A program made the position numbers and the translations under genes. This document shows positions 2,245-22,747 of a stretch of DNA of 64,000 nucleotides, piece after piece (position 1 is the stretch's first letter; each line of letters begins with the position of its first letter). This stretch comes from a bacterium. Lineage in GTDB: Bacteria > UBP14 > UBA6098. The notes beneath the pieces are model-generated. The model worked only from the letters and a program-made list of their open reading frames with translations. It made no database searches and was not told the origin of the DNA. Where the stretch lies: positions 1,282 to 65,281 of the forward strand of contig QNEE01000001.1 in NCBI GenBank assembly GCA_003645085.1, read 5' to 3'.

Positions 2245-2841
2245 TTATTCCCGCCTCGGCCCGACAGGCATAAGGTAGAGCGGCACGCCCTCGACGCCGA
2301 AAAGCGCCGAGACCCTATCGTCGTGAAACGCGCCTATTGCGACGGTCGATAATCCCAATGCCTCGGCAACCAGATATATATTCTGTCCGATGTGCCCTAT
2401 CTCGATATGCACGTATCGTTTTCCGCGTTCGCCGTAACGCCGGGTAGTCCGTTCGTAAATACCGAAAAGACATATCACAGCCGAGGCGTCTTTTAATGCA
2501 GATTGGCGCAGGGCGGCATTTGCGAGGTCTTCAATAAAAAGACCTTCTTTGATAGGTTCCAAAGCGTGCGATTCCTCGATATACCGGTATATTGCCGGTT
2601 CGAGACCTTCGACATTCTCCGCGAGAAGGTAAATATCTATTGGATATGTCGCCCCTGCGCTCGGCGCGGCGCGAAATCCGCGAGAGCTCGTAATGCCGGC
2701 GGAGGCCCATAGAAGTTCGCTAACCTGTTCGAGGTTTATTCCGCCGGAGCCGTAAGACCGCCTGCTTCGTCTTTCCTCGATAGTCCGATGCAACGGCATA
2801 TCGGCACCCGGCGGCGGAGGCAATTTGATAATCTCACCCAT
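2245..2841 (-). CDS. Nitroreductase-family / SagB-type dehydrogenase-fold protein. Start assigned to the internal ATG at 2841; the ORF extends to 3108 but that extension would overlap the upstream cyclophilin gene by >100 nt.
   Basis: Motifs RRSRRSYGSG, ...LLWASAGIT..., and C-terminal nitroreductase-like segments (HIEIGHIGQNIYLVAEALGLSTVAIGAF). Typical ~200 aa size when started at 2841. Confidence 0.65.
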   Translation of the reverse strand: MGEIIKLPPPPGADMPLHRTIEERRSRRSYGSGGINLEQVSELLWASAGITSSRGFRAAPSAGATYPIDIYLLAENVEGLEPAIYRYIEESHALEPIKEGLFIEDLANAALRQSALKDASAVICLFGIYERTTRRYGERGKRYVHIEIGHIGQNIYLVAEALGLSTVAIGAFHDDRVSALFGVEGVPLYLMPVGPRRE

Positions 2842-2893: not shown

Positions 2894-3490
2894 TTAGTCC
2901 TCGTCACCGCTAATGACCTCTGCCTTGCGGATATATACCGGTTCCACAGGCTTGCTCCCCGCCAGCGGGACCTTTTCGAGTTGATAGACAACATCCATTC
3001 CCGCAATGACCTTACCGAAAATCGTATATTGACCGTCGAGGTGCGGAGCAGCCTTGAACATAATATAGAACTGACTTCCGCTAGAGGCTTTATCGGGGTT
3101 AACGGCATCGCCGCGACGAGCCGCAGCGACCATACCGGCAGTATGCTTTAAATCCGAGAACTCCGCCGGGATAGTATAACCCGGGCCTCCGGTGCCGTCC
3201 CCTTTAGGGTCGCCGCCCTGTGCCATAAACCCTGGGATTATCCGGTGAAATGTTAAACCGTCGTAAAACCCCTCTTTTGCAAGTTTCACGAAATTCTCAG
3301 CGTGTTTCGGTGCGACATCCGCCAGAAGTTCGATATCGATATTGCCGAAATCGGTCGTCAACCTTACTACAGGGTTTTCGCTTTTGGCGGGCGCCGGTTG
3401 TGGTCGGTCGTCGTTGCCGTTCGCCGCACAACCAAAGCCGAAAACCAGAACTGCCGCGATTAACGTAAGAACTAAAACCATCTTTTCCAT
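2894..3490 (-). CDS. Cyclophilin-type peptidyl-prolyl cis-trans isomerase, predicted lipoprotein.
   Basis: FHRIIPGFMAQGGDP...GMVAAARRGD...SQFYIMFKAAPHLDGQYTIFGKV cyclophilin signature. Signal peptide with lipobox (LVFGFGC). Strong RBS GGAGGAAGG before ATG. Confidence 0.9.
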   Translation of the reverse strand: MEKMVLVLTLIAAVLVFGFGCAANGNDDRPQPAPAKSENPVVRLTTDFGNIDIELLADVAPKHAENFVKLAKEGFYDGLTFHRIIPGFMAQGGDPKGDGTGGPGYTIPAEFSDLKHTAGMVAAARRGDAVNPDKASSGSQFYIMFKAAPHLDGQYTIFGKVIAGMDVVYQLEKVPLAGSKPVEPVYIRKAEVISGDED

Positions 3491-6101: not shown

Positions 6102-6876
6102 ATAATTGGGAAAGTCCTATACCTATTGAAGTTTCGCTTTTGCCCCAGTAGCTCGTTTCTAATCCTAAAACATAACCTTTACCGATGTCTATGTCAAGCC
6201 CGATAACAGGTTTCGGATATTGACCCGGGTCGTTGAAAAAACCCGATAGCCTGGCATACGGTTCACCCGAATCCTCGGAATATGATTTCCTGTATTTCCG
6301 ACCCGTAATATAGGTCCAATGAACCCCTATATAAGGCTTAGTCCGTCCGAATCGCCAACTACCGTAAAACCCGATGTCGAAATTCTGGTATCTATATGAA
6401 TCCACGAAATGCAAAAGACCACCACCGAATTGGACTTCGTCCGAACTTCGCGTGGTTAGCCACGAGGCGGTTACATACCAGCGAAGCGGGTATCGCGCGG
6501 TCCATCTGCACCCGATACTCGGATAGAAGACGGCGTAATGCATCCTGACGCCCAATCCGAACGCGAGCTCTTGCTTACCGTTGAAATCCTCTTGAGCAGT
6601 GCTGTGGCTCGGCATATCGATATCGGCCATACCGAAATAACCGTAAATATCCGTAAAACGGAATATCCCCAGTGACGGTTTTATAAGCACCCTGCGGCTA
6701 TTTAATTTATAGTCCGGACCCTCGTAACGGATTTTCCACTTTTCATAATCGAATTCTACCCCCGTGCCGAATTTATTATATGGCGTCTCCGATGTGGGAT
6801 TACCGACCATTATACCAAAAACAGGCAGAATGAAAGTGGTAACGGCAAACGCGATTATGGCCGCATTTTTCGGCAT
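6046..6876 (-). CDS. Predicted outer-membrane beta-barrel protein (hypothetical).
   Basis: Signal peptide (AIIAFAVTTFILPVFG). Aromatic-rich alternating hydrophobic pattern (YGYFGM, FGLGVRMHY, GFYGSWRFG, GLDIDIGKGYVLGLETSYW) typical of OM beta-strands. AAGGAG RBS. 48-nt gap after the giant gene. Confidence 0.5.
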   Translation of the reverse strand: MPKNAAIIAFAVTTFILPVFGIMVGNPTSETPYNKFGTGVEFDYEKWKIRYEGPDYKLNSRRVLIKPSLGIFRFTDIYGYFGMADIDMPSHSTAQEDFNGKQELAFGLGVRMHYAVFYPSIGCRWTARYPLRWYVTASWLTTRSSDEVQFGGGLLHFVDSYRYQNFDIGFYGSWRFGRTKPYIGVHWTYITGRKYRKSYSEDSGEPYARLSGFFNDPGQYPKPVIGLDIDIGKGYVLGLETSYWGKSETSIGIGLSQLYAPPRDEDELEQAIEKPE

Positions 6877-6924
6877 ACCAATCTCCTTTTTAGGGGACGG
6901 GTTCTATTATACCGCCCCCGGTTT

Positions 6925-9900
6925 TTACTGCTCTTCTTTAATATAAAACTCGGTTCTCGGCGCTTCTATGACCGTCTCCGGTATTCCCTCGATATCCTCT
7001 TCCGGGGGTCTACCCGGGCGCCTACGAGCATAACCTACCTGAGTAGTCAACATTCCCCCTGTGCTATTTATAGTCGCCATTAACACTCCGATACTCGCCC
7101 CTCCGGTATCTGCAGCGGTGCAGGTCCAGCTTGCTTCTCCGGTGTTTCCCGTTGTTTGCGGATTAGCCGTAACGATAGTTACATTCGCGCCGGAAAGCGT
7201 AATATCCTCACCGCATATCGGATTATCCCACTGGTCGACTATACGGACTGAAGTAATAAAATCGCAGGTGTATGGAACCGAACTGGGAGCATTGATAGTC
7301 GAATTACTCGAGCTGGGCAGGTCGTGTTTAAGATATACAGTTCCACTTGTTACGACTCCGCCGATATTCGCGGTTACATTCACCGCTTTCGCGGTATCCT
7401 GCCCGCAATAATCGTCGCGGAATACGTTTGCGCCGGTATAGGTGCTTACCGCGTAACTACTGTAACATTCGTTAACGGAAGTTACCGGCGAGGTTACCGA
7501 ACCCCAGTCGGTTATCAGGTTTACACTCGTTCCGTCCGTAACCGGATTCCTGTTGACGTCCCATATAGAGACTTGAATCTCCGCTGTTCCGGTGGCGTCG
7601 GCATAGACAACCGCGGGCGAAATCGAAATAGCCATGCTGTCCGCCGGACCGCTATTATAGAAATATACGGTATCCGCACGCACGCCGCTCGTATCTCTCG
7701 TTTCCGCGATTATCGTAACGATACCGGTAGTGCCTCTGGGGTCGGCCGAATACCAGGTCGCAAAGGCGAACCCCGAATCGTCGGTTACGGAGGAGGTCGT
7801 TATCGCGCCCTGTAAAGCGGTGAACCATACGGCAGTTCCCGGCGCTACAGGATTATCGAACGTATCGGTAACGATAGCCATAATCGAGTTACTAACACCA
7901 TCGATATCCCAACCGCGCACATTACAATCCTCTCTCGATACCGAAACATTGAACGGCAGACCGCTGCCGATGGTTATCCTCGGCGCACGGGAGTCGATAG
8001 ACCCGCCGCCGGGGATATAAGCGACGGCTTCGACGACCATAGAGCCTGACCTATCGCCGCTTCGTGCGGCGACACTCGCGCGACCGGCCATCGTATAGAC
8101 TGTATCGCTGACCAACGCGCCGCCGGGTATCAACTCGGGATTTATCGAGCCGCCGGTCGGATAATCGACAATTCGGAACACGACCGCGCAGCTATCGCGG
8201 ACTGGATTGTCATACTCGTCGTATATTACAGCTTCGATTACCGCTTGGTCAATCTCGCCCACTCCGCGGATATAGATAAAATCACGGCTTACCGCGATAT
8301 CCATAGTATGCGGCGGGCCGGCGTATAGTAGTATGTTCGCGTGTTCTGACAAACCATCGACGGTAGCTGTAATCCCTGTCAGGCCGGCATTCAGTCCCGG
8401 GGTATAAAGCGTGGCGTAGAAACCGCTATCATCGGTGGCTACAATCGGGTCGGCGACGCTGCCTGTTCCGACGCTATCGACACTCAAATATACGTATGTC
8501 CCCGGCGCAACCGGATTATCCGCGGCATCGGTTACGTAACCGGAAACGATGCTCGTTATGCTGCTTCCGACTGTAGCTGTATCGGGCACGACGGTCAGCG
8601 TGATTTCATCCGGAGAACCGGCTTCGTAGGTAATTGTTACGAAAGCGGTTTCGCTCTGACAGATAGCGCGAATAGTATCGACACCGCTCGTATCCGCGGC
8701 GACGAGAATAGCCTCGGCGACACCGCTCAATAACGAATCTACGGGCGTAATCAAACCCATCTGTGCCGTGAAACGCACCGTTACGCCGTCAGATACCGGG
8801 TTGCCGAGACTATCTAAAACCGTAACGTGAACGTCCGCAGTCGAAATTCCGTCGGCGGGCAACCCGCGCGGTGAAATCGATATTATTATCGTATCGACCG
8901 TCGTAGCCAGATAATCTATCGGTAGATACCCGTTAACACCGCCGCTGGTCGCCTGCAGGTAAGATGAACCTATTCTGGTTGGTGAGGTAACCTTGAACGG
9001 AACTCCGCCTAAAGGTCCCGTTACCGCCATAGGGGGCGTTACAGACCCGAGGTCGAGCGTAAACGTAATAGCCTCGCCCGGAATACCGTTCCCGAAAGCG
9101 TCCTCGACCCAAACCGAATCGGCGAGTGTATCCACGCCGTCGGCGTAGAGTTGAACGAAATTCGTATCGAATCGGACAACCGCTATATCTCCCGGCAGGA
9201 AATAGACCGAGATAGTATCCGAATATATCGTATCGACGTAAGCGTAGACAAAGGTGCTTCCGATTACGGTCGGAGTGAACAGATGGACAGTAGCCCCGCC
9301 GTCGGTTGTAGTTTCGCGGTTCGGATTAAGAAGACCCTCGACACTACCGAGCGTCGTATCCTGCCCGAATCTCACGATAGTGCCGTCGGCAATAGGCATA
9401 CCCAAAGTATCGGCGACGAATGCTGTTATGTCGGCGAAAGTAACACCGTCTGCAGGCATATATCTCGGTGTAATTGAAAGTATAACCTCTCCGACATCTG
9501 TCGGGTCGAGCTGGATTTGCGTTACGCCCTCCGCGCCCTCGCAGTTCGCGCGGACAATAGCGACACCCGCGTAGCGTCCGGCTCTGAATGGAACATCGAC
9601 CCAACCGGAGTCGTCGGTCGCCGCGACACTCCATATCGTTCCGTAATCGGGCGGGTCGATAGAGAAATTAACGGCGTGTCCTGCGCCCACTTTATTGCCA
9701 AATGCATCGGTAATTTCTCCGTGAATCATCGTCGTATCCGTCTCATCGGCCATAAGAGTGGTTCTTCCCGGGGTAAGCCAGACATACGCAGGCGGGCCGG
9801 ACTCGAAAAGGATTGCCACGGTATCGGTCGAGTCGCCGCAGGTAGCGACGAGGCTGTCCCAACCTACGCTCGTATAGGCTGTTATCGTTGCGTTGGCCTC

Positions 9901-12900
9901 GCCGTCGGTAGTCGTAGTGAAGACTGGTGAAACATTCCCAAGTGAAAGGTCGGAGAACCGGACCGTAGTTCCGTCCGATACCGGATTGTCTGTCGTATCC
10001 AGAACGTAGACGATAACATCAGCGGTGCTTGCGCCGTCTGCTGTGAGGATTGTCGGGACGACCGTCAGGTTAACCTCCTTGACCTCCGTTGAAGTGAATT
10101 CGATAAGTATGTTCGCGTGAGCATCCCCGGATGTGGCGGTAACGTTAGAGAAACCGCTGACCGAGCCGGAAACCAAGCGAACACTCGCACGCCCAGAACT
10201 ATCCGTATATGCCGTAGTAACAATATCACCCAACGTTGCCGAGAAAGTTACCTCTTCACCGGGGCTAACCGGATTGCCATATTCGTCATAAACCTCTACG
10301 AATATTGTGCATATATCCGCGGAATTTGCGCTAATAACCGTATCCGAAGCCGAGATATACATAACTGACGGCGGTCCCGGCACGAACCGGGCATAAGCGG
10401 TATCGATTGCGGTTCCGCCGGCGCTTGCTGTTACATATACGGTATCTGCCGGTGTGGTTCCCGCAATAAGACTGCTCGTCGCAACTCCACCCAGTGTATA
10501 AGCTACCGCCGGACTGATAATCCCGTCGCTTGTTCCGAAACGAACCATCGTGCCGTCGGAGACCGGAAGACCAGTGGAATCCCATACTACCGCTGTAAGA
10601 TTAGCGGTTTCGACACCGTTTGCCGTTAGCTGCGGCGGATTAACCACGAGAAGTAACGATTCCGCAAGAAGCGGAAGGAAATTCAACGTCGCATATCCCG
10701 TAACTCCGCTGCATCTCGCAGACAAACTCGCCGTGCCGAAATCTGTTTCTGCAATAACCACCGTATAGGAAAACCCGGAATCGTTTGTTGCGCTTGCAGG
10801 TGTAACATAGCCTATAGTGATATCGTAACTAATCGGCAGACCCGGCGTAACGGGGTTCCCGAAAGCATCTGTAACCTCGACCCATACCGTCTGTGTGTCC
10901 GCCCCGTCCGCATACATATCCCTTATCGGCAGGACGAATGCGACAATAGCAGGCGGACCGGGTATGAAATCGACCACAGCGGTATCCGCGACAGTCGGGC
11001 TTACCGAAGCTATAATTGTGTCGGGACCCGTAGTAATCCCCGCGATAAGCTGCGCTGTAACCTGACCGTCCACAGTATAAGCCGTCCGCGGGGTTACGAT
11101 ACCACCACCTCGACTTTCGAAAAATACGGGGGTATTATCCGAAACCGGACGAATCCCACCCGTCGTATCCAATACCGAAGCGAGAAGGTTGCTGGTAGAA
11201 CTGCCGTCGGCGAGAATACGTATCGGGTTCGCGACGAGGTCTATTACGTCGGCAGTAAGCGCATAGAAATAGTATGGTCTGCTGCCGACAGCGACACCGC
11301 TTCGAGCGGTTACAAAAGCCGGACCGGTTTCCATACTCGAAAGAAGCGTTCGAGCCGTCCCCGAATCCGAATCGACAACGCTCGGCGAGATAATCTCGCC
11401 ACGGCTGGTCTCGAATGTAACCTCGGTTCCGATATTAACAGGATTATGGTAAGCGTCGTAGACCCTGACAACGACATCGTAACCTGCGCCGTCGGCCGGA
11501 AGCGTATCGGCATAAGTCGTATCGAACTCGATAGTCGCGGGTTCTCCAGGAATATAGGTAACCATAGCCGAATCGACTACTGTGGCGCCGACTGTGCCGA
11601 TAATCAACCCCTGACCGACATCGACGGGTGCGGTAAGAATCGCGGTAGCCTGCCCACCGGAAGTAAACGCGATACGCGGAGTGATAATACCTGTAGGCCG
11701 GCCTCCCGTCGTATCCTGTGTGAACGTAACGCGCGTATTATCGCTAACTGGTAATCCGCCGGCATCGTAGACATAGGCCGTAATATCCGCGGTGCTCGTC
11801 CCGTCTCCCGGAAGTATAGTCGGTATGACATTTACGATAATTTCGGCAGCAGTGAGCGAGTCGAAGAACACATCCACAAACTCGATAGCCTCTCCGCAAC
11901 GAATAGTTACCAGCGCGTGTCCCGACTCGGTAGAAGCGGTCAATCGGGTAAAGGCATAACCGGAAGTATTTGTATAGCCTGTTGGAATAATAGAACCGAG
12001 TGTCGTCTCGAACGATACGGGCGTAGCGGGAGCAACCGGGTTCGGATAGCGGTCGTAAACGGTGCATGCAATGGCAGCCACAGATGCGCCGTCGGCATAT
12101 AAAGTCCCGGGGATGGCATACGCGACTATCCGCGAAGCCGGTCCGGGATTCAGGCGAATGGTAGTTCTACCGGTATCGGACCCTGCGATAGCCCATATTT
12201 CGATACCGGGTGTAGCGACTGTATCCGCTTTGAGTACCGTAGTCGCTACTCCGCTGTCGGTATAGGCATCTGCGGGTAGCGGCAGCGCAAGACCGCTGGG
12301 AACCTCGAAACGAACCTGAGTATTGTTCGATACGAGATGACCGCCGGCGGAATAGACATAAGCATAGAGCTTGGTTGTGCTCGTGCCGTTGGCTACAAGT
12401 TCGGCAGAATCTGCAACGAGCAGGACATTATCGACAGTAGTAGCTTGTAGATTTATTTCTCCGTAACCCATAGCCTCGCCGCAATAGGCAAGAATAACGG
12501 CGTTGCCGGGTTCGAGTCCGGCGACCAACAGGGATTTGGCGATACCGGAAGTATCGGTTATCGCCGTAGGCGTTATCGTCCCGAGGCTGGTTTCGAATCT
12601 CACATTTTCCCCGGCTTCGAGATGGTTCCCATACTGGTCGAGGACTTCTGCGTAGATGAATATATCGTCGGCACCATCGGCCCAGATAGTATCGGTTGGA
12701 GTATGAGCCGTATCCGACCAGACGTTGATTGTCGTGGCCGGTCCGGGCTTTACAAAGATACGCACGCTATCTATAAGAGTATCCGGAGGCACCGCCATAG
12801 TGTCGAACACCTCTCCGATAATCCAGGCTTCACCAGTGCCGACCTGTGTGCTGGCAGTAAATATTGTTACACAACTACCGCCGAAAGTCAGCTTGGGTGA

Positions 12901-15900
12901 AACAACTGTCCCGGCCGTATCCGCAGGCCGGACGCGGAAATTGACCCGCGTGCCGTCCGTTATCGGGCTGCCTTCCCAGTCGAAAACCTGACAGGTTATA
13001 ATAGATTGAGACATACCGTCGGCGACAAGCTCGACAGGGTCGGCAGTCAACAGCAATGCACCGACATCGCTCTTGCGGAACGTAACTTGCGTAAGCTCGA
13101 ATTTCCCGCTGCTTTGCGCCCAGACCCGTGCGATTCCCGGTTCGGTCCCGGCGGTTAACATAGAGAAAGCGTCCCCAGCCGAATTCGTCATCGTATTCGA
13201 CGGCGCAATAGTTCCGAGGTCCGTTCCGAACGAAACGGATTCACCTGAAAGCAGTCGATTGCCGAAATCGTCGTAAAGAGTGGCGGTTATTTGCGATTCG
13301 TCGCGTCCGTTGGCCGCTATCGTATCCGGATTGGATTGTATATCGATAAACGAGAGAACTCCCGGTAATATCTGGATAAATACGGCGTCGCTTATCGTAT
13401 CGACCGAAGCTTGTATCCATACGCGACCACGTTTTGTTGTAACACGAAATTGAGTCTCCGCGATACCTGTCGTTGTGTAGGCTATCGTCGGTATTAATGA
13501 ACCGAGCGTATCCGACGGCGTAAGCAGTGTATCCCATATCGTATCCGGCCACATCGAGAATATTACCGGCGTGCCGTCGGATACGGGATTTCCAAGGCTA
13601 TCCAGGACGCTGGCCCGGCACGTTGTTTCGGAATACCCGTCTGCCTGCATAACGACATCATCGACCATAAGCGCGACCGTGAAGACGTTAGTCGGTGTAA
13701 ATACAACGTCGACTTCCCCGCGAGCGATTCCTGAACGACCGACCACTCTCGCAACACCTTGGTCGAAAGAACTGCGAAGGTAGACCTCGACTACACCCGC
13801 GCTGTTCGTTTCATCCGACACCGGGAACACTTCCCCACGACTTGTAGAGAACGTTACCTCGATACCGCCTCTAACGGGATTGCCGAACCGGTCGAACACA
13901 TAGGCGCGGATTGTATCCACACTGAAACTGTCTGCCGGTAAGGTTCCGATGGAAGCCGCCATATAGATGCTGTCCGGTTCCCCGGGAACGAGGTCGCACG
14001 AGACCGAATCGGAGATATAGAAACCGAGCGTATCGCCGACATAACCGACGATATGGCAGGTTTGCGCTTTCGTCCCCGCTGTAAATGTCGAAACAAAGGA
14101 ACCACTATCGGTATAAGCTGTTCCCGGCGAAATATATCCGAGGTCGATGCCACTCGTGTCGGGTATTACATATATATGAACGGGTGTCCCGTCCGTAATC
14201 GGATTCCCTAGGCTATTACGAACCATTCCTGAAACCTCCGCCGAGGACCGACCGTCTGCAACAAGCAAACTCGGGTCTATCGTAATAAACATCTCATCGA
14301 CGTTAGCCGGTATAAAATCGACACGACCGACATCTACCGCTTCGCCCGAAGTCGCGGTAATTAAGGCTGTTCCCGGGACTATCCCGCTTTGCAAACTCGT
14401 AATAGCGACTCCTGTCGTGCCGGCTATTATTTCCGTAACGGCGATAGTATCTATATTACCGAGAGTCGTCGAAAAATAGACGAGGTGCCCCGGCGCAACG
14501 CGGTTACCCATCGGGTCGAAGACATAAGCATTGATATCGGTGCGCGATGCCCCATCCGCGATAAGACTCGCCGAATCGGGGATTATTTCTATTAGATATG
14601 GTTCGCCTGCCCTGAAAGAAACATAGACCGTGTCCGAGACATAATACGTATCAGTCGGGTCGCCCACATAGCCGATAACCATAGCGGTATCGACATCGGA
14701 ACTGGCGCGGAGAGTTACCTCGGCAGCACCGCTCGTAGTATATGCCACACCGGGGAATATATTCCCCGCACTTGTCGTGAAGAAAATCGGCGTGGAGTCC
14801 GAAACACCGACCCCGGAAGTATCGAGAACGAGTGCATGCACTATCGTTTGGCTTACACCGTCGGCGATAAGAGACATACTATCCGTGAACAGGTCGATAG
14901 CGCCGACTGTAAGTGGAATAAGGTCTATCATAGTATAGCCGGCCGGGCCGCTCTCGCATGTTCCCGTGATTACCGCTCTGCCGACGCCGACACCCGCCTG
15001 GAAAGTTACATCGCTCGGGCCTGTAATATCTGTAAACGTATAAGTCGGGAACATCGTTCCCAGTTCCGATTCGGGGCCGACGACGAAATTAATTCGCTCA
15101 CCAGATTCCACAAGATTGCTATACTCGTCGTAGACCCATGTTCGCACTGTGCATATACTCGAGCCGTTGGCATAAAGGACGTTCGGGATAGCCTGCATAG
15201 TTACGCTAAACGGCGGTCCGGGCGTGAATATAACCTGAACGGTATCCGATAGCGAATCGGCCACTCGCGCCGAGACATAAGCCGTTCCTGTATTCGGCTC
15301 GGAATAGAGCCTGACGACCGCCTCGCCGTCCGTGGTCGTGGCGAGTGTGTCTATGCTGCCGAAATCGGCTCCGCCGCCGTCGACAGAATGGAAAATTACC
15401 AGAGTTCCGTCGTTGATAGGTTGCCCGAGTTCGTTGAGGACCTTGGCTGTTACCGTAGAATAGCTTTCGCCGTCGGCTGGTATCCGTCTCGGCTCTGCGC
15501 GAAGGCTTAAATACGCTGGCGGTGCGATATCCAGATTAACCTGAACTACCGCATGGCGGCCCTCCGCCTCGATATCTATACGTGCGATTGTGGGCACAAC
15601 TCCGGCAGTTAGCACTGCGTCGGCCTGCCCGGAAGAATTAGTATAGGTAACGTTTGGTGTTATCGAACCCGCGGTAGTCTCGAAACGAACCTCGATGCCC
15701 GCGCCGACCGAGTTGCCGTAGCGGTCGTATAACCTCGCGTGGACAATCGTGAACGCCTCGCCGTTGGCGGGTATCGCTGCGTCGTCGGCCCAGGCCTCGA
15801 TGCTGTCCACCGGGCCGGCAATCAGGTCGAGGAAAGTGTTCGCGCAATTAGTGCTGTCTGTGCAAGCCTGAACCCAGATTCTCCCGGTTTCCGTCGCGCT

Positions 15901-18900
15901 GCGAATTTGCACTACGGCTTCGCCGTCTGTGGTAAAGCCGACAGTCGGCGATATAAACGCTTTCGCCGTATCATCCGGCAATCCGGAAACCGTGTCTATG
16001 CTGAAATAGACCGGCGTCCCGTCGCTTATAGGCATACCGAGGCTATCCGTAACATAAGCCCTTACGAATGTGCTGGAAAGCGCATCGGCGACTATCGCAC
16101 TCGTGTCTGTGGTTACGCTTATATATCGAACGTCCGAATTAGTAAGTATCAAATAAATCTCGTTATGCGCCTCTTCTGCAGATACTCTTACTCTGGCCTC
16201 TCCCGGAACGCGTCCGGAAGTGAACAGTGCGTTCGCGTGACCGAAGGAGTTTGTCGTCTCGGTCGTCGGGTCTATAGTCCCTTTGTTTGCATCGAAACCG
16301 ACTGTAACCCCGGCGTCTACAGGGTTGTCGTAACGGTCGAATATCTCGACGTGGATATCGCTGGTAGAGAAACTATCCGCCGGTATAATAGTATCGGATG
16401 CCTCTATATAAATACTATCCGGAGGTCCCGGGATAAGCTCTATCATCACGCTTTCTATCACGGTCGGGCTGGCTTCTGCAATAATATAAGCTGTCCCGGC
16501 GTTGCGGTCTGCGGTAAGCGTAGCGTAGAACCATCCACTATCCGTATGCGCTGTTCTGGGCATCATATTGCCATAAGGGCCGAGACTATCTGTCGTTACG
16601 GACAATACTACGGGACTGCCGTCAGAAATAGGTCCCCCGAGGTCGTTAACCACGCGCCCGGAAACATCGGCGGTGCTATAGCCGTCCGCGACAATCTCGA
16701 CCGGGTCGACATATAAGAACATATCATCTGCCTGTGTATTGGTTAAATCTACCGTAGTTTGTCCTATGGCGGTGCCAGAAACTCCCCAAACAACAGCCGT
16801 TCCGGGTGTAATACCGGAATACAAACGCACAGTAGCTTCACCAAGCGAATTCGTATAAGCCGCCGAATCTATTGTCCCAAGTGTAGTGGAGAAATTGATT
16901 TTTTCGCCCGCTCCAACTAGATTGTCGTTGAGGTCGTAGACAACCGCCTGTATAGTGGTATAAGTATCGCCGTCGGCGGGGATACTCGATGGAATTGCGG
17001 TTAGAGTGATTGTTGCCGGAGGTCCGGGAACGAAATCGACAGTGCAGGTGCCGGTTACGCTATCGCCGGCGTCGCCGGTTATCGTCGCTGTGCCTACCGT
17101 CGTGGCGCTACGCAACGTCGTGGTCGCCTCGCCGTCCACAGTATAACCGATACCGGGGAAAACGAACCCAAGGTCTGTCGAAAACCTGATAGGAGTATTA
17201 TCTGGAACGGAAAAGCCCGAACTATCGCTCACAAAAGCCCTGATAGTAGTAGTGCTAATACCATCCGCCACAAGAGAAGCTGTATCCGAGGAAAGATATA
17301 TTTCGGCCGCCACAATGGTTGTGAAACAAACGTCGTCGTAATCGGTATAAACCGTTCCACCTTCGTCTTCCGCGCTCGCAGATACCCAGGTAACACCTAT
17401 TACGTCGGAATATATCTCTGTCGTAACCTGACCGAGACTATCGGTGTTACCGACGGTAACGGCAAAACTACCGAACGGCGCCGCCGAGAACGTAACCTCG
17501 ACGCCCGATACGGGATTATCGTAAGCGTCATAGACCGTCGCGATAACGTCTGCGGTCGATATCCCATCTGCGGGGACGCTATCCGGAGTAACCTGAACCG
17601 TAACTCTGGCAACATCTCCGGCGATAAATTCTACTATCGAACTATCCGAAAGACCGTAGACATCCCCATAAACGACCGCCTTCGTAACAATCTCTGGCGC
17701 GCGCCAAGTAATACTAGCGTCTCCGCCGGCGGTTACCGCGAATGTATCCATATCTCCTACGGGGAATCCGGTATAAATATCTCGGTTCCAGAAACGCACG
17801 ACGGTTCCATCGGCTACCGGTTCCGCGTATTCGTTAAGAACCCGCGCCTTCACAACGGTAGAATCTGTTCCGTTTGCGACAACCCTGTTCGGGTTCGCGG
17901 TAACCGTTATATATGCCGCTATCGGCTCTATTTGCTCGACATCGAAAAGGGCTTGAGCGGTTATTTCATCTGCCGGATAATTACCGTAAGGTCCATTTAC
18001 ATATTTCGCAATCATCGCCGCAGTTCCAACAACGTTGGATGCGCGGTAAATTGTATGAGCCTCCCCTTGACTATCGACAATAGCAGGGGTCGAGATTAAC
18101 CCCGGGACAATGGTAATACCGGGGTCGAAATCGAATAATATCGGTGTTCCGGGTCTAGCATAGTTTAAATATACGTCTCGGACGGTGGCTGTAATCGTGC
18201 TGCGTGCCCGTCCGTCTGCAAAAATGGAATCCGGGTCAACGTCCACCTCGATATACACCGGGCAATCAGCAACATAGTGGACGAACGCTGTATCGGCTAT
18301 CATCCCGGAATCGGCCGAAGCGATAATAGTATCTACCAATGCGGCCGTTGTCGCGTGAAGTTCCGCCGAAGCTTCACCTCCCACTGTAAACCCGAATCCG
18401 GGGACAAGGGTGCCTCGCGATGCCGTAAAATCTACTTGTGTATCGTCGGATACTGGCCGACCGCCTGCGTCGAAGACGCTCGCATGAACTACGGTATTTC
18501 CGCCGACAGTAATCTCGATATCGTCGGTATATATAATTATATATGCAGGGCCAGTAGAAATTATTTCTATTGGCACGGTCTCGACAGCACCGTCGATAGA
18601 AGCGCGGATAACGACCCTGCCGACTATAGTCCCGCCGGTATAAGTAGTTCTGGCGACGCCGAGGCTGTCCGTGGCCATCGGTGAGATAACATTCCCCATC
18701 GTATCCGGAATCGCCTCGAAAGTAACGTCCCTGCCGGATTCGGCGTGGTTCCCGAAAGCGTCGTAACATTCTGCGACAATCTCGGAACGTTCGCCGCCGG
18801 CGGAAAGCAGTGTATCGGGCGTAGCAGTCAATATTATAGTAGCCACCGGGCCGGGGCCGACAGTTATCGTCTTCGTATCGGCGACAGCATCGCAGGTCGC

Positions 18901-21900
18901 GATAATAACCCCCCTGCCGGCGATAGTATCCGGGTGGAACGTGGCCAAAGCCTGACCATCCGTAGTAGTCGGGCTTGCCGGGTCGACAAATCCTATCTCC
19001 GGCAAATCGACAGTAAAATGAACCCGGGCGCCATCGCGAATCGGGTCGCCAAGACTGTCATAGACCTGAGCCTTAACACCCATCGTTTTGCCGATATGCA
19101 CGTGCAGGCTATCGGTAGTTAATACGATTTCTCCGGCGGCACCGGGGCCGATATACACCGTTTTTGTGTCGGCTACCGAGCCGACAGTCGCTATAATATC
19201 GCAGTCCCCGGCGAACGTATCCGCGCGGAATTCAGCCGTGGCCACGCCACCGGACGTTATGGGGTGCGCCGGAACGACCTCGCCGTAACCGACCGGCTCG
19301 ACGGTGAAATTGACTATCGTTCCGTCGGTTATCGGCGCTCCGATACTATCGAAAACCTCGGCGGTAACACCCATCCGGCTTTCGAAATCGAGAGTCGTGC
19401 TATCTATCGATAGGACAATATCGCCAGCTAAAGCTCCTGTGAGCCAGACGCTCACGTTTTGTGTTACATCCGGGTCGGAGATAAGTTTGGCGTTAATTAC
19501 AGCTTCTCCGGTTGTATAATGGCTCTTGAATTTGGTGCTACATATACTCGCCGCATTCGTTATCTGGGTTTCGAGTGTTAAATGGCCGAAATCCTCGCTA
19601 CCCGTAACCATAGAGAACTCTACAAGATGGCCCTCGCCGACCGGATTGAAATGAGCGTCAGTTAAATAGGCCTCGATAATGCTCGAGCTCGCGCTGTCTG
19701 CGGGTATCGTATCAGGGGTTGCCGTCAACTCTATCCTCATAGGAACATCGGGCATAAACGCAACCTGCATACTATCCACCGCGCTATCCGCGACCCCTGT
19801 AACAACGGAAACATAGACCCACGTTGTGCCTATCGTGGTCGGCGCGATTAGTAATACCCCTGCATAACCCGGAAGCAACGAACCTTCCCCCGTATATGTT
19901 GTGAATTCATCATAGAAAGGAGCCATATCGTAAGCTGGCGAGCCACCCCCCATCAGGCTTCTCGGGTCGACACGCGCCCTTGGGGCGCTTTCCGCTATAT
20001 CTTTCTCTTCGCTTATTCGTTCGATTACTCCTATATCGCCACCGTCGCCTGTAAATAGCGCCGTTCGCCTCGCGAGCGGCATAAACGTTCCCATATCCGT
20101 GCGGAATGTAACCGGTGTGCCGTCGGAGCAGGGCCTGTCGTAGTCGTCGGTAATATAAACAAGGATAGTGCATTGGTCGGCGCCGTCAGCCGTAGCCGAA
20201 TCGAAATCCGCGAGAACGCGCAACTCCTTCGGCAGAATCGGATAGAAATATATTTGTCCGTGACCCGGCGTAGCTCCGGAGGCGGTCGCCGTAATCGTAT
20301 GCCACCCGGTGTTTCGCGAACTCGTCAGTTCGGTTTGCGCGCGCCCGGTGGCGTCGGTATTGTCCGAAACGGGATTAACCGAACCGCCGTCCTCGTCGGT
20401 AGAAAAAGTAACCTGAATTCCAGCCCCGACGGGATTGTCGTAAGCATCGAAAACATCCGCCCAGACCGTGCAAGTATCCTGATTATCGGCGAGAATGCTG
20501 TCGCGGCTGAAACTAACGTCGATTCGGCTCGGCTCTCCGGGAAGGAACGGAATATAAATCGTATCCGTAGCCGTAATCACAGTATCGGCAAGCAGTGTAT
20601 CGAACATTTGATACCACGCAGCGACCATACATGAATCGGCAAGGTAACCGCTTGTTAGAATAACACTGCAAAAACCGCCCGAAGTCGTCGCCTCGCGACT
20701 ATCCGCCGTAAAATTCCCTTTTCCTTTATCGAGCAACGACCTTTGCCGAACTCGCGAACTCGATAATGTCCCGAGGTCCGTAAAGAACTTTATCCGGACT
20801 CCATCTGTAACCGGGTTATACAACGAATCGAGAACCTCGGCCGTTATAATAGATTGGCTTAAACCGTCGGCGGGAAGCTGGTTCGGCAGTGCATTCAACT
20901 GGATATATTTTGGAATTGTGCTTGTCAAAAGCACTTCGGTGTAACCCGATGCTCCTTCGCAGGTCGCGGTAACGCGCGCGTAACCCGTCGTTACTCCGCT
21001 GGTTAATACTGTAGTTGCGCGTCCGGCGGTATCGGTCAGCGCGGAGGCCGGGAACACAGTTCCTTTATCGGTTGCGAAATCGACCGTCCAGCCGGTATTG
21101 CAGGTATTGCCGTATTCGTCGTAGACCGTCGCCGTTATTAACGTAGTATCGTGCCCATCGGCGTTGATTACGGTTCTCGCGGCGTCCACAACCACACTTA
21201 TCGGGTCGCCGGCTGTGAACGTTACATAAGCCGTATCGGCGATAGTTCCCGTAGTTCCGACCGCTGCGCTGGCGGTGAGTTCGACCTTGTGAGCCGTCGT
21301 GGAACTTCGTAAGCGGAGACGTGCGTATCCGTCCACTGTATATGCGACCATCGAAACGGCCGGACGCCTTTTAAAAGTCAGTGCCGCCGGGTGGCGAAGA
21401 GCCGCCATAGCCGGACTCGTTTTCTTCGAGTTTGGCGCAATCCTGCCCCTTCCGACCTCTTCTGCAGGGGCGGATTTATAGGCCTCGATGGGCAATAGTG
21501 TGCCGTCCTCGGCAGTAAATAGGATTTCCGTGCCGTCGGGCGCCGGAGTTCCAGTCGCACCGACCGTTACGTAAGCCGAAAGTTCTGTCTCGCTGTTGCC
21601 GTCCGCGGGAATACTCGTCGGGTCGGCCCGAAGGTCGATAAAATCTACATCCGGAATTTCGAGTATCCAGATGCTGTCCACAGCGGACACCGAATCGTAA
21701 ATCCCCTGCACCGTAGCGGACATAACCACCAGCCTGCCAGTATTGGGCGCGATAAAGTGTCCGGTAACTATACCATCCGCGTCCGTAATAGCATAATTAT
21801 CTACCGTAAGGATAATATCACCGAGATTGCCCTCGATAAAATTGAAAAGAACCTTATGGTTCTGGAGACCGCTATAACTGGCATCGAGAACGGTCGCGGT

Positions 21901-22401
21901 AAGGTCTATCTGGCTGGTGCCGTCGGCATAGACCGTGTCGGGTTCGGCGACGAAATAGATATAAGCCGGGTCGGTATAATTGGTAGGAAGAACGGTTATA
22001 TACAACCGTTTCGTTCGGATTTGCTCGGCGGTAACCTTGACGATAATCGTCGCCGTGTAGTTCGCCGTGCTGTCCTGTTCTGTCTGGAAAACGGTCGTAG
22101 CTATACCGCTGCTGTTTGTCAGAACCTTCTGGTTTTCGATAGTCCCATAATTCGTTGTGAACTCGACGGGAGCATCCGGAACCGGGTTCCCCGTTTCCGT
22201 TCCGACTACCAAAGCATAAACATTCGTCTCATCCCCCGCGATTAACGTCGAATAATCTGCCCATACGCTGTCGATTAGATAATCCGTGTCCGGGAATCCA
22301 ACCGTCCCACTTTTGCCGCAACCGCCGGCGAAAATAAGGGCAGAAATCGCAAGCGAAATTCCCGCCCAAATGATTAAACGAAATATATCTTTTTTATTCA
22401 T
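6925..22401 (-). CDS. Giant (5158 aa) cell-surface lipoprotein made of tandem bacterial Ig-like (Big_1 / invasin-intimin type) domains; putative adhesin.
   Basis: N-terminal lipoprotein signal MNKKDIFRLIIWAGISLAISALIFAGGC. Dozens of ~95-100-aa repeats sharing the motif ...TAxVxDxxGNPVxDGTxVxFxTxLGT...YTxSxGxAxxxLxSGxxxGTAxVxA... AAGGAG RBS 7 nt before ATG. Single uninterrupted ORF of 15.5 kb. Confidence 0.85.
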   Translation of the reverse strand: MNKKDIFRLIIWAGISLAISALIFAGGCGKSGTVGFPDTDYLIDSVWADYSTLIAGDETNVYALVVGTETGNPVPDAPVEFTTNYGTIENQKVLTNSSGIATTVFQTEQDSTANYTATIIVKVTAEQIRTKRLYITVLPTNYTDPAYIYFVAEPDTVYADGTSQIDLTATVLDASYSGLQNHKVLFNFIEGNLGDIILTVDNYAITDADGIVTGHFIAPNTGRLVVMSATVQGIYDSVSAVDSIWILEIPDVDFIDLRADPTSIPADGNSETELSAYVTVGATGTPAPDGTEILFTAEDGTLLPIEAYKSAPAEEVGRGRIAPNSKKTSPAMAALRHPAALTFKRRPAVSMVAYTVDGYARLRLRSSTTAHKVELTASAAVGTTGTIADTAYVTFTAGDPISVVVDAARTVINADGHDTTLITATVYDEYGNTCNTGWTVDFATDKGTVFPASALTDTAGRATTVLTSGVTTGYARVTATCEGASGYTEVLLTSTIPKYIQLNALPNQLPADGLSQSIITAEVLDSLYNPVTDGVRIKFFTDLGTLSSSRVRQRSLLDKGKGNFTADSREATTSGGFCSVILTSGYLADSCMVAAWYQMFDTLLADTVITATDTIYIPFLPGEPSRIDVSFSRDSILADNQDTCTVWADVFDAYDNPVGAGIQVTFSTDEDGGSVNPVSDNTDATGRAQTELTSSRNTGWHTITATASGATPGHGQIYFYPILPKELRVLADFDSATADGADQCTILVYITDDYDRPCSDGTPVTFRTDMGTFMPLARRTALFTGDGGDIGVIERISEEKDIAESAPRARVDPRSLMGGGSPAYDMAPFYDEFTTYTGEGSLLPGYAGVLLIAPTTIGTTWVYVSVVTGVADSAVDSMQVAFMPDVPMRIELTATPDTIPADSASSSIIEAYLTDAHFNPVGEGHLVEFSMVTGSEDFGHLTLETQITNAASICSTKFKSHYTTGEAVINAKLISDPDVTQNVSVWLTGALAGDIVLSIDSTTLDFESRMGVTAEVFDSIGAPITDGTIVNFTVEPVGYGEVVPAHPITSGGVATAEFRADTFAGDCDIIATVGSVADTKTVYIGPGAAGEIVLTTDSLHVHIGKTMGVKAQVYDSLGDPIRDGARVHFTVDLPEIGFVDPASPTTTDGQALATFHPDTIAGRGVIIATCDAVADTKTITVGPGPVATIILTATPDTLLSAGGERSEIVAECYDAFGNHAESGRDVTFEAIPDTMGNVISPMATDSLGVARTTYTGGTIVGRVVIRASIDGAVETVPIEIISTGPAYIIIYTDDIEITVGGNTVVHASVFDAGGRPVSDDTQVDFTASRGTLVPGFGFTVGGEASAELHATTAALVDTIIASADSGMIADTAFVHYVADCPVYIEVDVDPDSIFADGRARSTITATVRDVYLNYARPGTPILFDFDPGITIVPGLISTPAIVDSQGEAHTIYRASNVVGTAAMIAKYVNGPYGNYPADEITAQALFDVEQIEPIAAYITVTANPNRVVANGTDSTVVKARVLNEYAEPVADGTVVRFWNRDIYTGFPVGDMDTFAVTAGGDASITWRAPEIVTKAVVYGDVYGLSDSSIVEFIAGDVARVTVQVTPDSVPADGISTADVIATVYDAYDNPVSGVEVTFSAAPFGSFAVTVGNTDSLGQVTTEIYSDVIGVTWVSASAEDEGGTVYTDYDDVCFTTIVAAEIYLSSDTASLVADGISTTTIRAFVSDSSGFSVPDNTPIRFSTDLGFVFPGIGYTVDGEATTTLRSATTVGTATITGDAGDSVTGTCTVDFVPGPPATITLTAIPSSIPADGDTYTTIQAVVYDLNDNLVGAGEKINFSTTLGTIDSAAYTNSLGEATVRLYSGITPGTAVVWGVSGTAIGQTTVDLTNTQADDMFLYVDPVEIVADGYSTADVSGRVVNDLGGPISDGSPVVLSVTTDSLGPYGNMMPRTAHTDSGWFYATLTADRNAGTAYIIAEASPTVIESVMIELIPGPPDSIYIEASDTIIPADSFSTSDIHVEIFDRYDNPVDAGVTVGFDANKGTIDPTTETTNSFGHANALFTSGRVPGEARVRVSAEEAHNEIYLILTNSDVRYISVTTDTSAIVADALSSTFVRAYVTDSLGMPISDGTPVYFSIDTVSGLPDDTAKAFISPTVGFTTDGEAVVQIRSATETGRIWVQACTDSTNCANTFLDLIAGPVDSIEAWADDAAIPANGEAFTIVHARLYDRYGNSVGAGIEVRFETTAGSITPNVTYTNSSGQADAVLTAGVVPTIARIDIEAEGRHAVVQVNLDIAPPAYLSLRAEPRRIPADGESYSTVTAKVLNELGQPINDGTLVIFHSVDGGGADFGSIDTLATTTDGEAVVRLYSEPNTGTAYVSARVADSLSDTVQVIFTPGPPFSVTMQAIPNVLYANGSSICTVRTWVYDEYSNLVESGERINFVVGPESELGTMFPTYTFTDITGPSDVTFQAGVGVGRAVITGTCESGPAGYTMIDLIPLTVGAIDLFTDSMSLIADGVSQTIVHALVLDTSGVGVSDSTPIFFTTSAGNIFPGVAYTTSGAAEVTLRASSDVDTAMVIGYVGDPTDTYYVSDTVYVSFRAGEPYLIEIIPDSASLIADGASRTDINAYVFDPMGNRVAPGHLVYFSTTLGNIDTIAVTEIIAGTTGVAITSLQSGIVPGTALITATSGEAVDVGRVDFIPANVDEMFITIDPSLLVADGRSSAEVSGMVRNSLGNPITDGTPVHIYVIPDTSGIDLGYISPGTAYTDSGSFVSTFTAGTKAQTCHIVGYVGDTLGFYISDSVSCDLVPGEPDSIYMAASIGTLPADSFSVDTIRAYVFDRFGNPVRGGIEVTFSTSRGEVFPVSDETNSAGVVEVYLRSSFDQGVARVVGRSGIARGEVDVVFTPTNVFTVALMVDDVVMQADGYSETTCRASVLDSLGNPVSDGTPVIFSMWPDTIWDTLLTPSDTLGSLIPTIAYTTTGIAETQFRVTTKRGRVWIQASVDTISDAVFIQILPGVLSFIDIQSNPDTIAANGRDESQITATLYDDFGNRLLSGESVSFGTDLGTIAPSNTMTNSAGDAFSMLTAGTEPGIARVWAQSSGKFELTQVTFRKSDVGALLLTADPVELVADGMSQSIITCQVFDWEGSPITDGTRVNFRVRPADTAGTVVSPKLTFGGSCVTIFTASTQVGTGEAWIIGEVFDTMAVPPDTLIDSVRIFVKPGPATTINVWSDTAHTPTDTIWADGADDIFIYAEVLDQYGNHLEAGENVRFETSLGTITPTAITDTSGIAKSLLVAGLEPGNAVILAYCGEAMGYGEINLQATTVDNVLLVADSAELVANGTSTTKLYAYVYSAGGHLVSNNTQVRFEVPSGLALPLPADAYTDSGVATTVLKADTVATPGIEIWAIAGSDTGRTTIRLNPGPASRIVAYAIPGTLYADGASVAAIACTVYDRYPNPVAPATPVSFETTLGSIIPTGYTNTSGYAFTRLTASTESGHALVTIRCGEAIEFVDVFFDSLTAAEIIVNVIPTILPGDGTSTADITAYVYDAGGLPVSDNTRVTFTQDTTGGRPTGIITPRIAFTSGGQATAILTAPVDVGQGLIIGTVGATVVDSAMVTYIPGEPATIEFDTTYADTLPADGAGYDVVVRVYDAYHNPVNIGTEVTFETSRGEIISPSVVDSDSGTARTLLSSMETGPAFVTARSGVAVGSRPYYFYALTADVIDLVANPIRILADGSSTSNLLASVLDTTGGIRPVSDNTPVFFESRGGGIVTPRTAYTVDGQVTAQLIAGITTGPDTIIASVSPTVADTAVVDFIPGPPAIVAFVLPIRDMYADGADTQTVWVEVTDAFGNPVTPGLPISYDITIGYVTPASATNDSGFSYTVVIAETDFGTASLSARCSGVTGYATLNFLPLLAESLLLVVNPPQLTANGVETANLTAVVWDSTGLPVSDGTMVRFGTSDGIISPAVAYTLGGVATSSLIAGTTPADTVYVTASAGGTAIDTAYARFVPGPPSVMYISASDTVISANSADICTIFVEVYDEYGNPVSPGEEVTFSATLGDIVTTAYTDSSGRASVRLVSGSVSGFSNVTATSGDAHANILIEFTSTEVKEVNLTVVPTILTADGASTADVIVYVLDTTDNPVSDGTTVRFSDLSLGNVSPVFTTTTDGEANATITAYTSVGWDSLVATCGDSTDTVAILFESGPPAYVWLTPGRTTLMADETDTTMIHGEITDAFGNKVGAGHAVNFSIDPPDYGTIWSVAATDDSGWVDVPFRAGRYAGVAIVRANCEGAEGVTQIQLDPTDVGEVILSITPRYMPADGVTFADITAFVADTLGMPIADGTIVRFGQDTTLGSVEGLLNPNRETTTDGGATVHLFTPTVIGSTFVYAYVDTIYSDTISVYFLPGDIAVVRFDTNFVQLYADGVDTLADSVWVEDAFGNGIPGEAITFTLDLGSVTPPMAVTGPLGGVPFKVTSPTRIGSSYLQATSGGVNGYLPIDYLATTVDTIIISISPRGLPADGISTADVHVTVLDSLGNPVSDGVTVRFTAQMGLITPVDSLLSGVAEAILVAADTSGVDTIRAICQSETAFVTITYEAGSPDEITLTVVPDTATVGSSITSIVSGYVTDAADNPVAPGTYVYLSVDSVGTGSVADPIVATDDSGFYATLYTPGLNAGLTGITATVDGLSEHANILLYAGPPHTMDIAVSRDFIYIRGVGEIDQAVIEAVIYDEYDNPVRDSCAVVFRIVDYPTGGSINPELIPGGALVSDTVYTMAGRASVAARSGDRSGSMVVEAVAYIPGGGSIDSRAPRITIGSGLPFNVSVSREDCNVRGWDIDGVSNSIMAIVTDTFDNPVAPGTAVWFTALQGAITTSSVTDDSGFAFATWYSADPRGTTGIVTIIAETRDTSGVRADTVYFYNSGPADSMAISISPAVVYADATGTAEIQVSIWDVNRNPVTDGTSVNLITDWGSVTSPVTSVNECYSSYAVSTYTGANVFRDDYCGQDTAKAVNVTANIGGVVTSGTVYLKHDLPSSSNSTINAPSSVPYTCDFITSVRIVDQWDNPICGEDITLSGANVTIVTANPQTTGNTGEASWTCTAADTGGASIGVLMATINSTGGMLTTQVGYARRRPGRPPEEDIEGIPETVIEAPRTEFYIKEEQ

Positions 22402-22475
22402 AGAGACGCTCCTTTATTCTTAAATTGGCAAACTCTCTATTACACTTACTATTATACTAATTCTCTTTAAGTGGA
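22402..22475 (-). promoter_or_regulatory. Candidate promoter/5' leader of the giant adhesin gene, inside a 346-bp AT-rich intergenic region (22402-22747).
   Basis: On the minus strand the sequence reads ...TTAAAGAGAATTAGTATAATAGTAAG... (TATAAT-like -10) about 50 nt upstream of the RBS/ATG. The region is markedly AT-rich compared with its flanks. Confidence 0.3.
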
Positions 22476-22747
22476 TTGTCAAGGGAAATTTCGTTTTTTA
22501 TGCACAGAAAACCTTTAGGTGAAAATGGTTATCCCTAAAATCCACCTAATATTTTTTGTTTTTACTATATATAATAAAAAAGATGCAAATTTTATGCCGT
22601 AGAAGAAACCCACTTAAATAAAGGCTTTGCGGATTATGTTGCAGGTGAGTTTATTGCATTTTGCACGAAAAAACTTTATAATGCAATTCTCTATAGAAAT
22701 ACGTTCCGGGAGGTTCATCCGAACCGGAAAGAACGGTATATTCCGTA

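Follow-up and report, generated by a model that had tools for sequence, protein, structure and literature searches.

A 49-domain Big_1 lipoprotein is encoded at the head of a conserved barrel, TPR and cyclophilin gene cassette

Outside the Proteobacteria, little is understood of how the outer membrane is crossed by lipoproteins and by adhesin-like fibres of great length. This question is raised by a gene in a 64,000-nucleotide stretch of the bacterial contig QNEE01000001.1 (assembly GCA_003645085.1, positions 1,282 to 65,281 of the forward strand; hereafter the window). The gene occupies window positions 6925..22401 on the minus strand and encodes a giant protein built from Big_1 immunoglobulin (Ig)-like domains, recorded in the databases as RKZ31968.1, "hypothetical protein DRQ36_00040 [bacterium]". 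It reads from an ATG start as one intact open reading frame (ORF) of 5158 codons, as an initial annotation had stated without giving the strand. That annotation described the sequence features of the giant well, and its interpretation is supported in part; it overlooked the most informative feature, a downstream cassette encoding a beta-barrel, a tetratricopeptide repeat (TPR) protein and a cyclophilin. Taken together, our analysis tips the balance modestly toward a reading in which the giant is the cargo or fibre part of a conserved envelope cassette in Zixibacteria-like bacteria, forming a lipid-anchored surface fibre with a dedicated export or anchoring module composed of the barrel, the TPR protein and the peptidyl-prolyl isomerase (PPIase).

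The cassette runs in the order giant Big_1 lipoprotein, outer-membrane beta-barrel, TPR protein, lipoprotein cyclophilin and nitroreductase, with all five genes on the minus strand. The barrel gene (6046..6876) begins 49 nt downstream of the giant gene, is preceded by a separate AGGAG ribosome-binding site and encodes 276 aa with a signal peptidase I-type signal peptide. Its 3′ end is overlapped by 56 nt by the gene for the 863-aa TPR protein (3510..6101), which has a cleavable signal peptide (...AVSLA/QP, with the slash marking the cleavage site) and orthologs of about 855 aa at 54-61% identity. The 198-aa cyclophilin-type PPIase (2894..3490; Pfam Pro_isomerase, E 3e-51) carries a lipobox (VFGFG/C) and is a predicted periplasmic lipoprotein; the TPR protein is also predicted to be periplasmic. 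The last conserved gene encodes a nitroreductase-family protein (2245..2841; about 198 aa as called by other pipelines). No terminator-like site was found between the giant and barrel genes, and the giant and its partner genes are probably co-transcribed. The 6877-6924 interval that separates giant and barrel on the minus strand holds an imperfect, GC-rich hairpin (CCGGGGGCGG...CCCGTCCCC) that lacks a T-run and lies just before the AGGAG site; it may be a processing, stability or translational-coupling element.

The association of the barrel with a Big_1 gene extends well beyond the window. Across loci from several metagenomes and metagenome-assembled genomes, counting those with readable upstream DNA alone, every barrel homolog directly follows a Big_1 gene on the same strand (about 15 distinct contigs). 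The Big_1 proteins that precede the barrel are 697, 5052, 5158, 5277, 5394, 6710 and 9325 aa in length. The shortest of these is itself a complete lipoprotein (locus L014), and at two loci (L016 and L019) the upstream gene is visible as a C-terminal Big_1 domain alone. Across these loci the barrels cover a range of divergence, with 65% identity at the near end and profile E-values of 1e-13 to 1e-21 at the far end. Cassette genes often overlap, by 4-56 nt, and the TPR and PPIase genes follow the barrel wherever downstream DNA suffices. The nitroreductase gene is present in nearly all of those loci, and past it the neighbourhoods diverge. Giants of close relatives keep to a length of 5052-5394 aa, and two of the homologs are labelled "candidate division Zixibacteria", which makes this lineage the most likely source of the window. 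We found nothing specific in the literature on this cassette or on giant Ig proteins of Zixibacteria; the dedicated partner cassette and its strict linkage are new here. Two different cassettes share the whole-genome shotgun prefix NPID01 (L012, NPID01000336.1, from assembly GCA_015657875.1; and L029, NPID01000815.1). One of the two has the 6710-aa giant and a distant barrel, and the other matches locus L028 in TPR identity and coordinates; they may be paralogous cassettes of one genome, or may reflect a mixed bin or a differing assembly.

The nature of the partner barrel was addressed by structure prediction. The 276-aa protein has no Pfam or NCBIfam family match, and a search of PDB sequences with its profile returned no match at E<=10. 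An AF2 model computed with a 19-homolog alignment is an all-beta barrel with about 11-12 predicted strands and a predicted local distance difference test (pLDDT) score of 78; it was used in place of a single-sequence model, which was discarded at pLDDT 31. When searched against the PDB with Foldseek, the model gave 158 matches at E<=1e-3, and the 50 listed consist entirely of outer-membrane barrel proteins and engineered forms of such proteins. Top-ranked are omptins, the FapF polypeptide transporter and the 12-strand NalP, EspP, Hbp and EstA translocators, with template modelling (TM) scores of 0.4-0.47. Consistently, relatives of the barrel have weak to moderate Pfam matches to PF03797 (Autotransporter beta-domain) and PF13505 (OMP_b-brl). 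One relative (P0029) scores 29.4 bits for OMP_b-brl, for which the gathering threshold is 28.7, and another (P0061) scores 52.5 against 26 bits for the Autotransporter beta-domain and 38.4 against 28.7 for OMP_b-brl. As modelled, the 276-aa partner belongs to the outer-membrane beta-barrel superfamily.

The barrel family is rare, with 70 proteins at E<=1e-3 among 1.84e9 representative proteins, and none of these 70 profile matches is a fusion of barrel and Big_1 domains. Of the two long matches, P0061 is a tandem barrel and P0073 is an unrelated GEVED/fn3 protein. Several features are conserved within the family. Residues 25-36, just past the signal peptide, form a nearly invariant NPTxETPYERFG segment, and the one invariant cysteine, C122, lies in a predicted loop (YPxxGC). 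At the C-terminus, an internal ...GLSQLY strand gives way to a conserved acidic tail (...IE+P+) in place of a terminal aromatic residue.

The giant itself is dominated by its Ig array. Pfam Big_1 (PF02369) and Invasin_D3 (PF09134) match throughout the protein, in 12-16 stretches in each third and at E-values of 1e-102 to 1e-124 per third. A hidden Markov model (HMM) iterated from the giant resolves these into 49 contiguous domains of about 97 aa each (aa 43-5122; 7036..22275, minus strand), joined by linkers of mostly 1 aa, which agrees with the initial estimate of 45-50 Big_1-type repeats. Only Ig-type domains, and no other fold class, were found in a Pfam scan of all 5158 aa. No lectin-like tip was found in the giant, as the last 1958 aa have Ig-type Pfam matches alone and the last 499 aa are blank for NCBIfam. 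The mature protein has a mass of 535 kDa and a pI of 4.05; Thr, Val, Ala, Gly and Asp are abundant in it, and Lys accounts for just 0.9%.

The domains have diverged in an ordered way. The median pairwise identity between them is 27%, rising to 54.5% for the closest pair (D9/D10), and Tandem Repeats Finder reported 0 arrays in the gene, which upholds the earlier view of diverged repeats with no recent amplification. Domains two apart share 33% identity vs 25% for neighbours. When every domain was compared with two consensus types, type A (PGPP start and TNSxG loop) and type B (ADGxST...PVSDGTPV...T-TDGxA) alternated strictly from D3 to D45 (B-A-B-A), the sole exception being D9-D10, which are both of type B. 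D46-D49 form an atypical C-terminal module, in which D49 matches the Big_1 profile weakly. At the membrane-proximal end, D3 (aa 250-395), D5 (494-617) and D7 (721-882) carry insertions of 25-65 residues, which appear basic or disordered.

At its N-terminus, the giant has a signal peptide with a lipobox (aa 1-28; 22318..22401, minus strand; MNKKDIFRLIIWAGISLAISALIFAGG followed by C). The lipobox reads AISALIFAGGC, with the cysteine at position 28, and conforms to a PROSITE PS51257-type pattern, which we defined as a basic n-region, a hydrophobic h-region and [LIVMFWSTAG](2)-[LIVMFYSTAGCQ]-[AGS]-C with the Cys at 15-35. Both the pattern and the Cys are kept in three relatives: a fragment that is 58% identical to the giant (P0020), a 5394-aa ortholog on contig CAYWOR010000001.1 and the 697-aa protein of L014. 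The earlier call of a lipoprotein signal peptide is thus sustained, and the mature protein is predicted to begin at Cys28 and to be lipidated there. A linker of 14 residues separates Cys28 from the first Ig domain. The C-terminus is a 36-aa acidic tail (6928..7035, minus strand; ...YARRRPGRPPEEDIEGIPETVIEAPRTEFYIKEEQ), which is not a T9SS (type IX secretion system) C-terminal domain (CTD). An RRRP motif and an aromatic patch in this tail (...RRRPGRPPEEDIEGIPETVIEAPRTEFYIKEEQ) are kept among close orthologs. In distant giants the acidic tails are different, though each contains a hydrophobic patch, and the tail is absent from small family members. A role for the tail as a trans-donated barrel strand or as a TPR-binding peptide was considered, and the motif is not kept in distant members.

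To what extent the array has been remodelled over time can be read from the CAYWOR ortholog, which was reassembled from two overlapping loci and is a full-length counterpart of 51 domains, 55% identical to the giant. A homolog search with the first 400 aa of the giant returned one fragment and missed both the giant and this known ortholog, and was not used for finding orthologs. Domain-by-domain BLAST aligns window domains W1-W8 with ortholog domains O1-O8 and W11-W49 with O13-O51. The sole exception to positional matching is W27, for which O21 is best and the positional partner O29 a close second. Copy number differs only for the D9/D10 unit, present in 2 copies in the giant and 4 in the ortholog. 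The best orthologous domain match averages 114 bits vs 56.5 for the best paralog, and the insertions of D3, D5 and D7 are kept in the ortholog, in domains of 137, 121 and 158 aa. Conservation is lowest in the distal W48-W49 (39-45%) and in W23-W28. Judged from these alignments, the array is old and stable, with domains individually conserved and without concerted evolution, because one-to-one domain orthology holds at 55% identity vs about 27% among paralogous domains. The fixed one-to-one layout looks more like that of a structural fibre of set design than that of a fast-evolving adhesin. The adhesin function proposed in the initial annotation was a guess: the giant has no tip or lectin domain, and one-to-one domain conservation suits a structural fibre more. 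The S-layer-like alternative named in that annotation likewise gained no support here.

Upstream of the giant gene lies an AT-rich intergenic region of 347 bp. A promoter-like site, read from sequence as a consensus match alone, spans 22451..22482 on the minus strand and consists of TTGACA (22482-22477), a 17-nt spacer and TAGTAT (22459-22454), the latter overlapped by a perfect TATAAT (22456-22451). An AAGGAG ribosome-binding site follows at 22414-22409.

These features can be assembled into a working model. The window encodes Lnt, a LolA-like protein, a LolCE-like permease, LptF/G, and PorZ-like and PorU-like proteins. The presence of Lnt together with the LolA-like and LolCE-like proteins argues that the organism has an outer-membrane lipoprotein pathway, and the gene content as a whole that it is a diderm equipped with a pathway for sorting lipoproteins and with parts of a T9SS. 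In the proposed model, the giant would be exported by Sec, lipidated and delivered to the outer membrane by Lol, after which the partner barrel and the TPR protein would help its chain across the outer membrane. The N-terminus could be tethered by lipid alone, as in a Slam-like flipping mechanism, or by the 14-residue linker threaded through the barrel lumen, which would amount to an inverse-autotransporter topology with the barrel in trans. Neither sub-model fits better than the other. The role proposed for the cyclophilin is to make the numerous proline-containing Ig domains fold faster. The outcome would be a surface-projecting, N-terminally tethered rod of about 180 nm, a length based on the roughly 3.6 nm per Ig domain of the invasin structure.

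Several observations weigh against this model. All cassettes come from one apparent lineage, such that inherited synteny and functional coupling are not fully separable. The fold likeness of the barrel is generic, not specific (TM <= 0.47), and comparison of the barrel with YeeJ residues 1-520, which hold the YeeJ barrel, by hhalign gave a probability of 0.7%. The barrel family likewise has no DUF560 match at E<=1. No lipoprotein export signal of the Bacteroidota type follows Cys28 (+2 to +6 = GKSGT). Neither the nitroreductase nor the conserved C-terminal tail of the giant has an apparent place in the model as proposed. Finally, lipidation of the giant, its surface exposure and its contact with the barrel are inferred.

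Comparison with known systems clarifies what is distinct about the locus. By analogy of function, the giant and its cassette resemble inverse autotransporters, the ZirT/SinH systems and Slam, and they are a member of none of these. Inverse autotransporters (type Ve; intimin, invasin, FdeC, YeeJ) have the same Big_1/Invasin_D3 tandem passenger and the same proposed topology, with the N-terminus at the membrane and the C-terminal chain directed outward, and involve a barrel of about 12 strands. Unlike them, the giant lacks a cis-encoded barrel, LysM and a lectin tip, starts with a lipobox and reaches its first Ig domain at aa 43, and carries 49 domains against 4 to about 20. A lectin-like C-terminal tip is found in intimin and invasin and is not universal among these proteins. 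The inverse-autotransporter barrel PF11924 was found neither in the 5158 aa of the giant nor, at E<=1, in the 19 barrel homologs. ZirT and SinH barrels have separately encoded Ig-like substrates (PMC4943183); as here, an outer-membrane barrel gene adjoins a separate Ig-like-domain gene, and the barrel is the proposed or shown exporter. In that case the barrel is a bona fide inverse autotransporter (PF11924) upstream of its substrate, whereas the barrel described here comes from an unrelated, unannotated family and lies downstream of a lipoprotein substrate, with TPR and PPIase genes in addition. Slam combines TPR repeats with a barrel, has adjacent lipoprotein substrate genes and moves these substrates to the cell surface (PMC5449769). 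The type XI secretion system (T11SS) represented by Neisseria Slam1/2, with TbpB, HpuA and others, thus shares with our locus the linkage of TPR and barrel to an adjacent lipobox gene. However, Slam is one polypeptide with a 14-strand DUF560 barrel and is reported only in Proteobacteria, while the TPR protein (863 aa) and barrel (276 aa) here are separate, and Slam cargo has a TbpB-like handle/barrel fold in place of an Ig chain.

Lipid-anchored or giant Ig-repeat proteins are also known elsewhere. Leptospira LigA and LigB are surface lipoproteins with about 12-13 Big_2 domains and no barrel in cis. Like the giant, InvL of Acinetobacter baumannii, a lipoprotein invasin-like adhesin known already, is a surface lipoprotein with an Ig-like chain and no barrel in cis, although it has 3 Ig-like domains and a lectin-like cap and depends on the T2SS (type II secretion system; PMC9245377). 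Neither InvL nor the Lig proteins have a dedicated barrel/TPR/PPIase cassette or come near a total of 49 domains. In domain number and mass the giant is comparable to SiiE, a giant rod-like Ig-repeat adhesin with 53 BIg domains that uses the type I secretion system (T1SS) (PMC5466336), and to a giant Mobiluncus adhesin with 51 Ig-like domains (PMC10619420). SiiE has no Sec signal and exits by the T1SS, whereas the giant has a signal for Sec and signal peptidase II (SPII), a predicted lipid anchor and a partner barrel. The same holds for T1SS adhesins of the RTX/BIg class more widely (SiiE, LapA type), which lack an N-terminal Sec signal and carry a C-terminal T1SS signal or RTX repeats; the giant has a Sec/SPII signal and no RTX, with no RTX/HemolysinCabind match in its Pfam scan. 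The Mobiluncus protein is a Gram-positive wall-anchored adhesin, in contrast to the predicted lipid anchor of the giant. The initial annotation had considered N-terminal lipid anchoring of such a fibre unusual among T9SS-bearing bacteria. This was overstated, as surface-exposed lipoproteins are commonplace in Bacteroidota (PMC6222051, PMC11573676), and InvL provides a further precedent.

The alternative that survives best, which we consider unlikely, is that the giant is a surface lipoprotein fibre exported by a general route, such as a T2SS as for InvL or a phylum-wide lipoprotein flippase, with the cassette genes being accessory or unrelated neighbours. InvL offers a direct example of an invasin-like lipoprotein that uses a general secretion system (PMC9245377), and the generic fold matches of the barrel are compatible with such a route. 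In addition, synteny between the window and CAYWOR extends upstream over unlinked-looking HD, AIRS, Lnt, PorZ-like and FemAB-like genes, which indicates that broad synteny is present in the lineage. However, adjacency of barrel and Big_1 gene survives barrel divergence where the remaining neighbourhood has changed, and it holds even with a Big_1 partner of 697 aa. The barrel family is also very rare and was never met without a Big_1 neighbour in the readable loci, and the overlapping reading frames suggest translational coupling.

Somewhat less probable again is that the giant is not surface exposed at all and serves as an inner-leaflet-anchored periplasmic or envelope scaffold, perhaps tied by its tail to the barrel or the TPR protein. 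Pfam and NCBIfam reveal no recognised outer-membrane translocation signal in the giant, and a periplasmic location is predicted for the TPR protein as well as for the PPIase. The strict position of all 49 domains and the 5052-5394 aa range of close relatives would suit a structural element better than an adhesin, and the acidic tail conserved at the C-terminus might act as a TPR-binding peptide. Set against this, those tandem Big_1 arrays that have been characterised (intimin, invasin, FdeC) are passengers displayed outside the cell, and a rod of about 180 nm would be too long to span the periplasm. A dedicated barrel that resembles polypeptide-conducting barrels is explained more easily by export, and the range of 697 to 9325 aa in distant members argues against a fixed ruler.

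It is very unlikely that the giant is a T9SS cargo whose divergent, unrecognised CTD is D49, the last and atypical Ig-like domain. Genes for T9SS parts and for CTD proteins lie nearby (PorZ-like, and a PorU-like C25 protein), T9SS CTDs are themselves small beta-sandwiches, and D49 is weak against the Big_1 profile. However, the last 499 aa of the giant match no NCBIfam model at E<=0.01, including the type A and type B T9SS CTDs, and PF18962 (T9SS CTD) has no match in the Pfam scan. In the same NCBIfam scan, TIGR04183 found the CTDs of the proteins encoded at 32230-36282 and 49115-52450 (above cutoff) and that of the PorZ-like protein at 23710-25980 (below cutoff). A cryptic T9SS CTD was rejected on this contrast between the giant and its neighbours. 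Furthermore, the 36-aa acidic tail follows D49, which is thus not the protein end, a lipobox would be unexpected on a T9SS cargo, and small family members end directly after an ordinary Ig domain. The initial annotation was therefore right that the giant has no T9SS CTD; of the four other CTD proteins that it had counted in the window, these three were verified and the fourth was not.

That the long ORF is spurious, arising from collapsed repeats in an assembly artefact or from a pseudogene, has a negligible probability: although repeat-rich genes are generally prone to mis-assembly, nothing specific in favour of an artefact turned up, the gene has no DNA tandem repeats, its protein repeats share just about 27% identity, and other genomes contain colinear orthologs comparable in size. 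Over 8.4-9.9 kb at its 3′ end, the gene is 100% identical across three assemblies from different pipelines, which were possibly built from overlapping reads, and the strain variant P0091, likewise of 5158 aa, departs from the giant at 9 residues. Assembly collapse of repeats, a concern raised along with frameshifts in the initial annotation, is ruled out by the 0 tandem-repeat arrays and the multi-assembly identity. The giant gene is an intact gene and no assembly artefact, because its 3′ part is identical in the three assemblies and it has a strain variant of the same length.

Other genes of the window provide context for the envelope of this organism. Upstream of the giant, 22748-29160 (minus strand) encodes HD-domain, AIR-synthase-like, Lnt, PorZ-like beta-propeller (with a weak T9SS CTD) and FemAB/GNAT-like acyltransferase proteins, and in the CAYWOR genome, at 50-55% identity, the counterparts are arranged in the same way (L011 3281-9726). 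The 1111-aa Peptidase_C25 and Por_Secre_tail protein at 49115-52450 (minus strand), which is PorU-like or gingipain-like, is evidence for a T9SS in a non-Bacteroidota lineage. The protein at 32230-36282 (plus strand) has 1350 aa; it contains an IgGFc_binding domain (E 6e-63) and carries a T9SS CTD of type A. Outer-membrane biogenesis genes at 37867-40046 (plus strand) and 44635-45996 (minus strand) encode LolA-like, MacB/FtsX-type (LolCE-like) permease and LptF/G proteins. A low-GC island at 46000-50000 (0.40-0.42 vs about 0.50 elsewhere) contains genes for a Tsp45I-type restriction enzyme (48186-48977) and an N6/N4 DNA methylase (47131-48174), and is probably a horizontally acquired restriction-modification system. 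A D12-class methylase gene at 36481-37761 coincides with a further GC dip, of 0.445.

Our analysis identifies a compact, conserved and genetically separable candidate system, consisting of cargo, barrel, TPR protein and PPIase. It is tempting to go further and propose, as a tentative and rather doubtful extension, that the barrel, TPR protein and cyclophilin constitute an undescribed export or anchoring machine for lipidated Big_1 fibres of up to 9325 aa. If true, this would represent an inverse autotransporter or Slam in separate parts, in a non-proteobacterial lineage (Zixibacteria, within the Fibrobacteres-Chlorobi-Bacteroidetes (FCB) group), and a new secretion class or subclass. The family includes a natural minimal version, with a 697-aa cargo and a 255-aa barrel, which is suitable for surface-display assays in E. 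coli of the kind used for Slam. The array is in its own right a clean natural case of a stable alternating A-B Ig super-repeat, with 49 domains placed one-to-one between species, and is relevant to how neighbouring tandem domains avoid misfolding. For the Zixibacteria, the cassette gives an annotation to "hypothetical" genes that are among the largest in their genomes.

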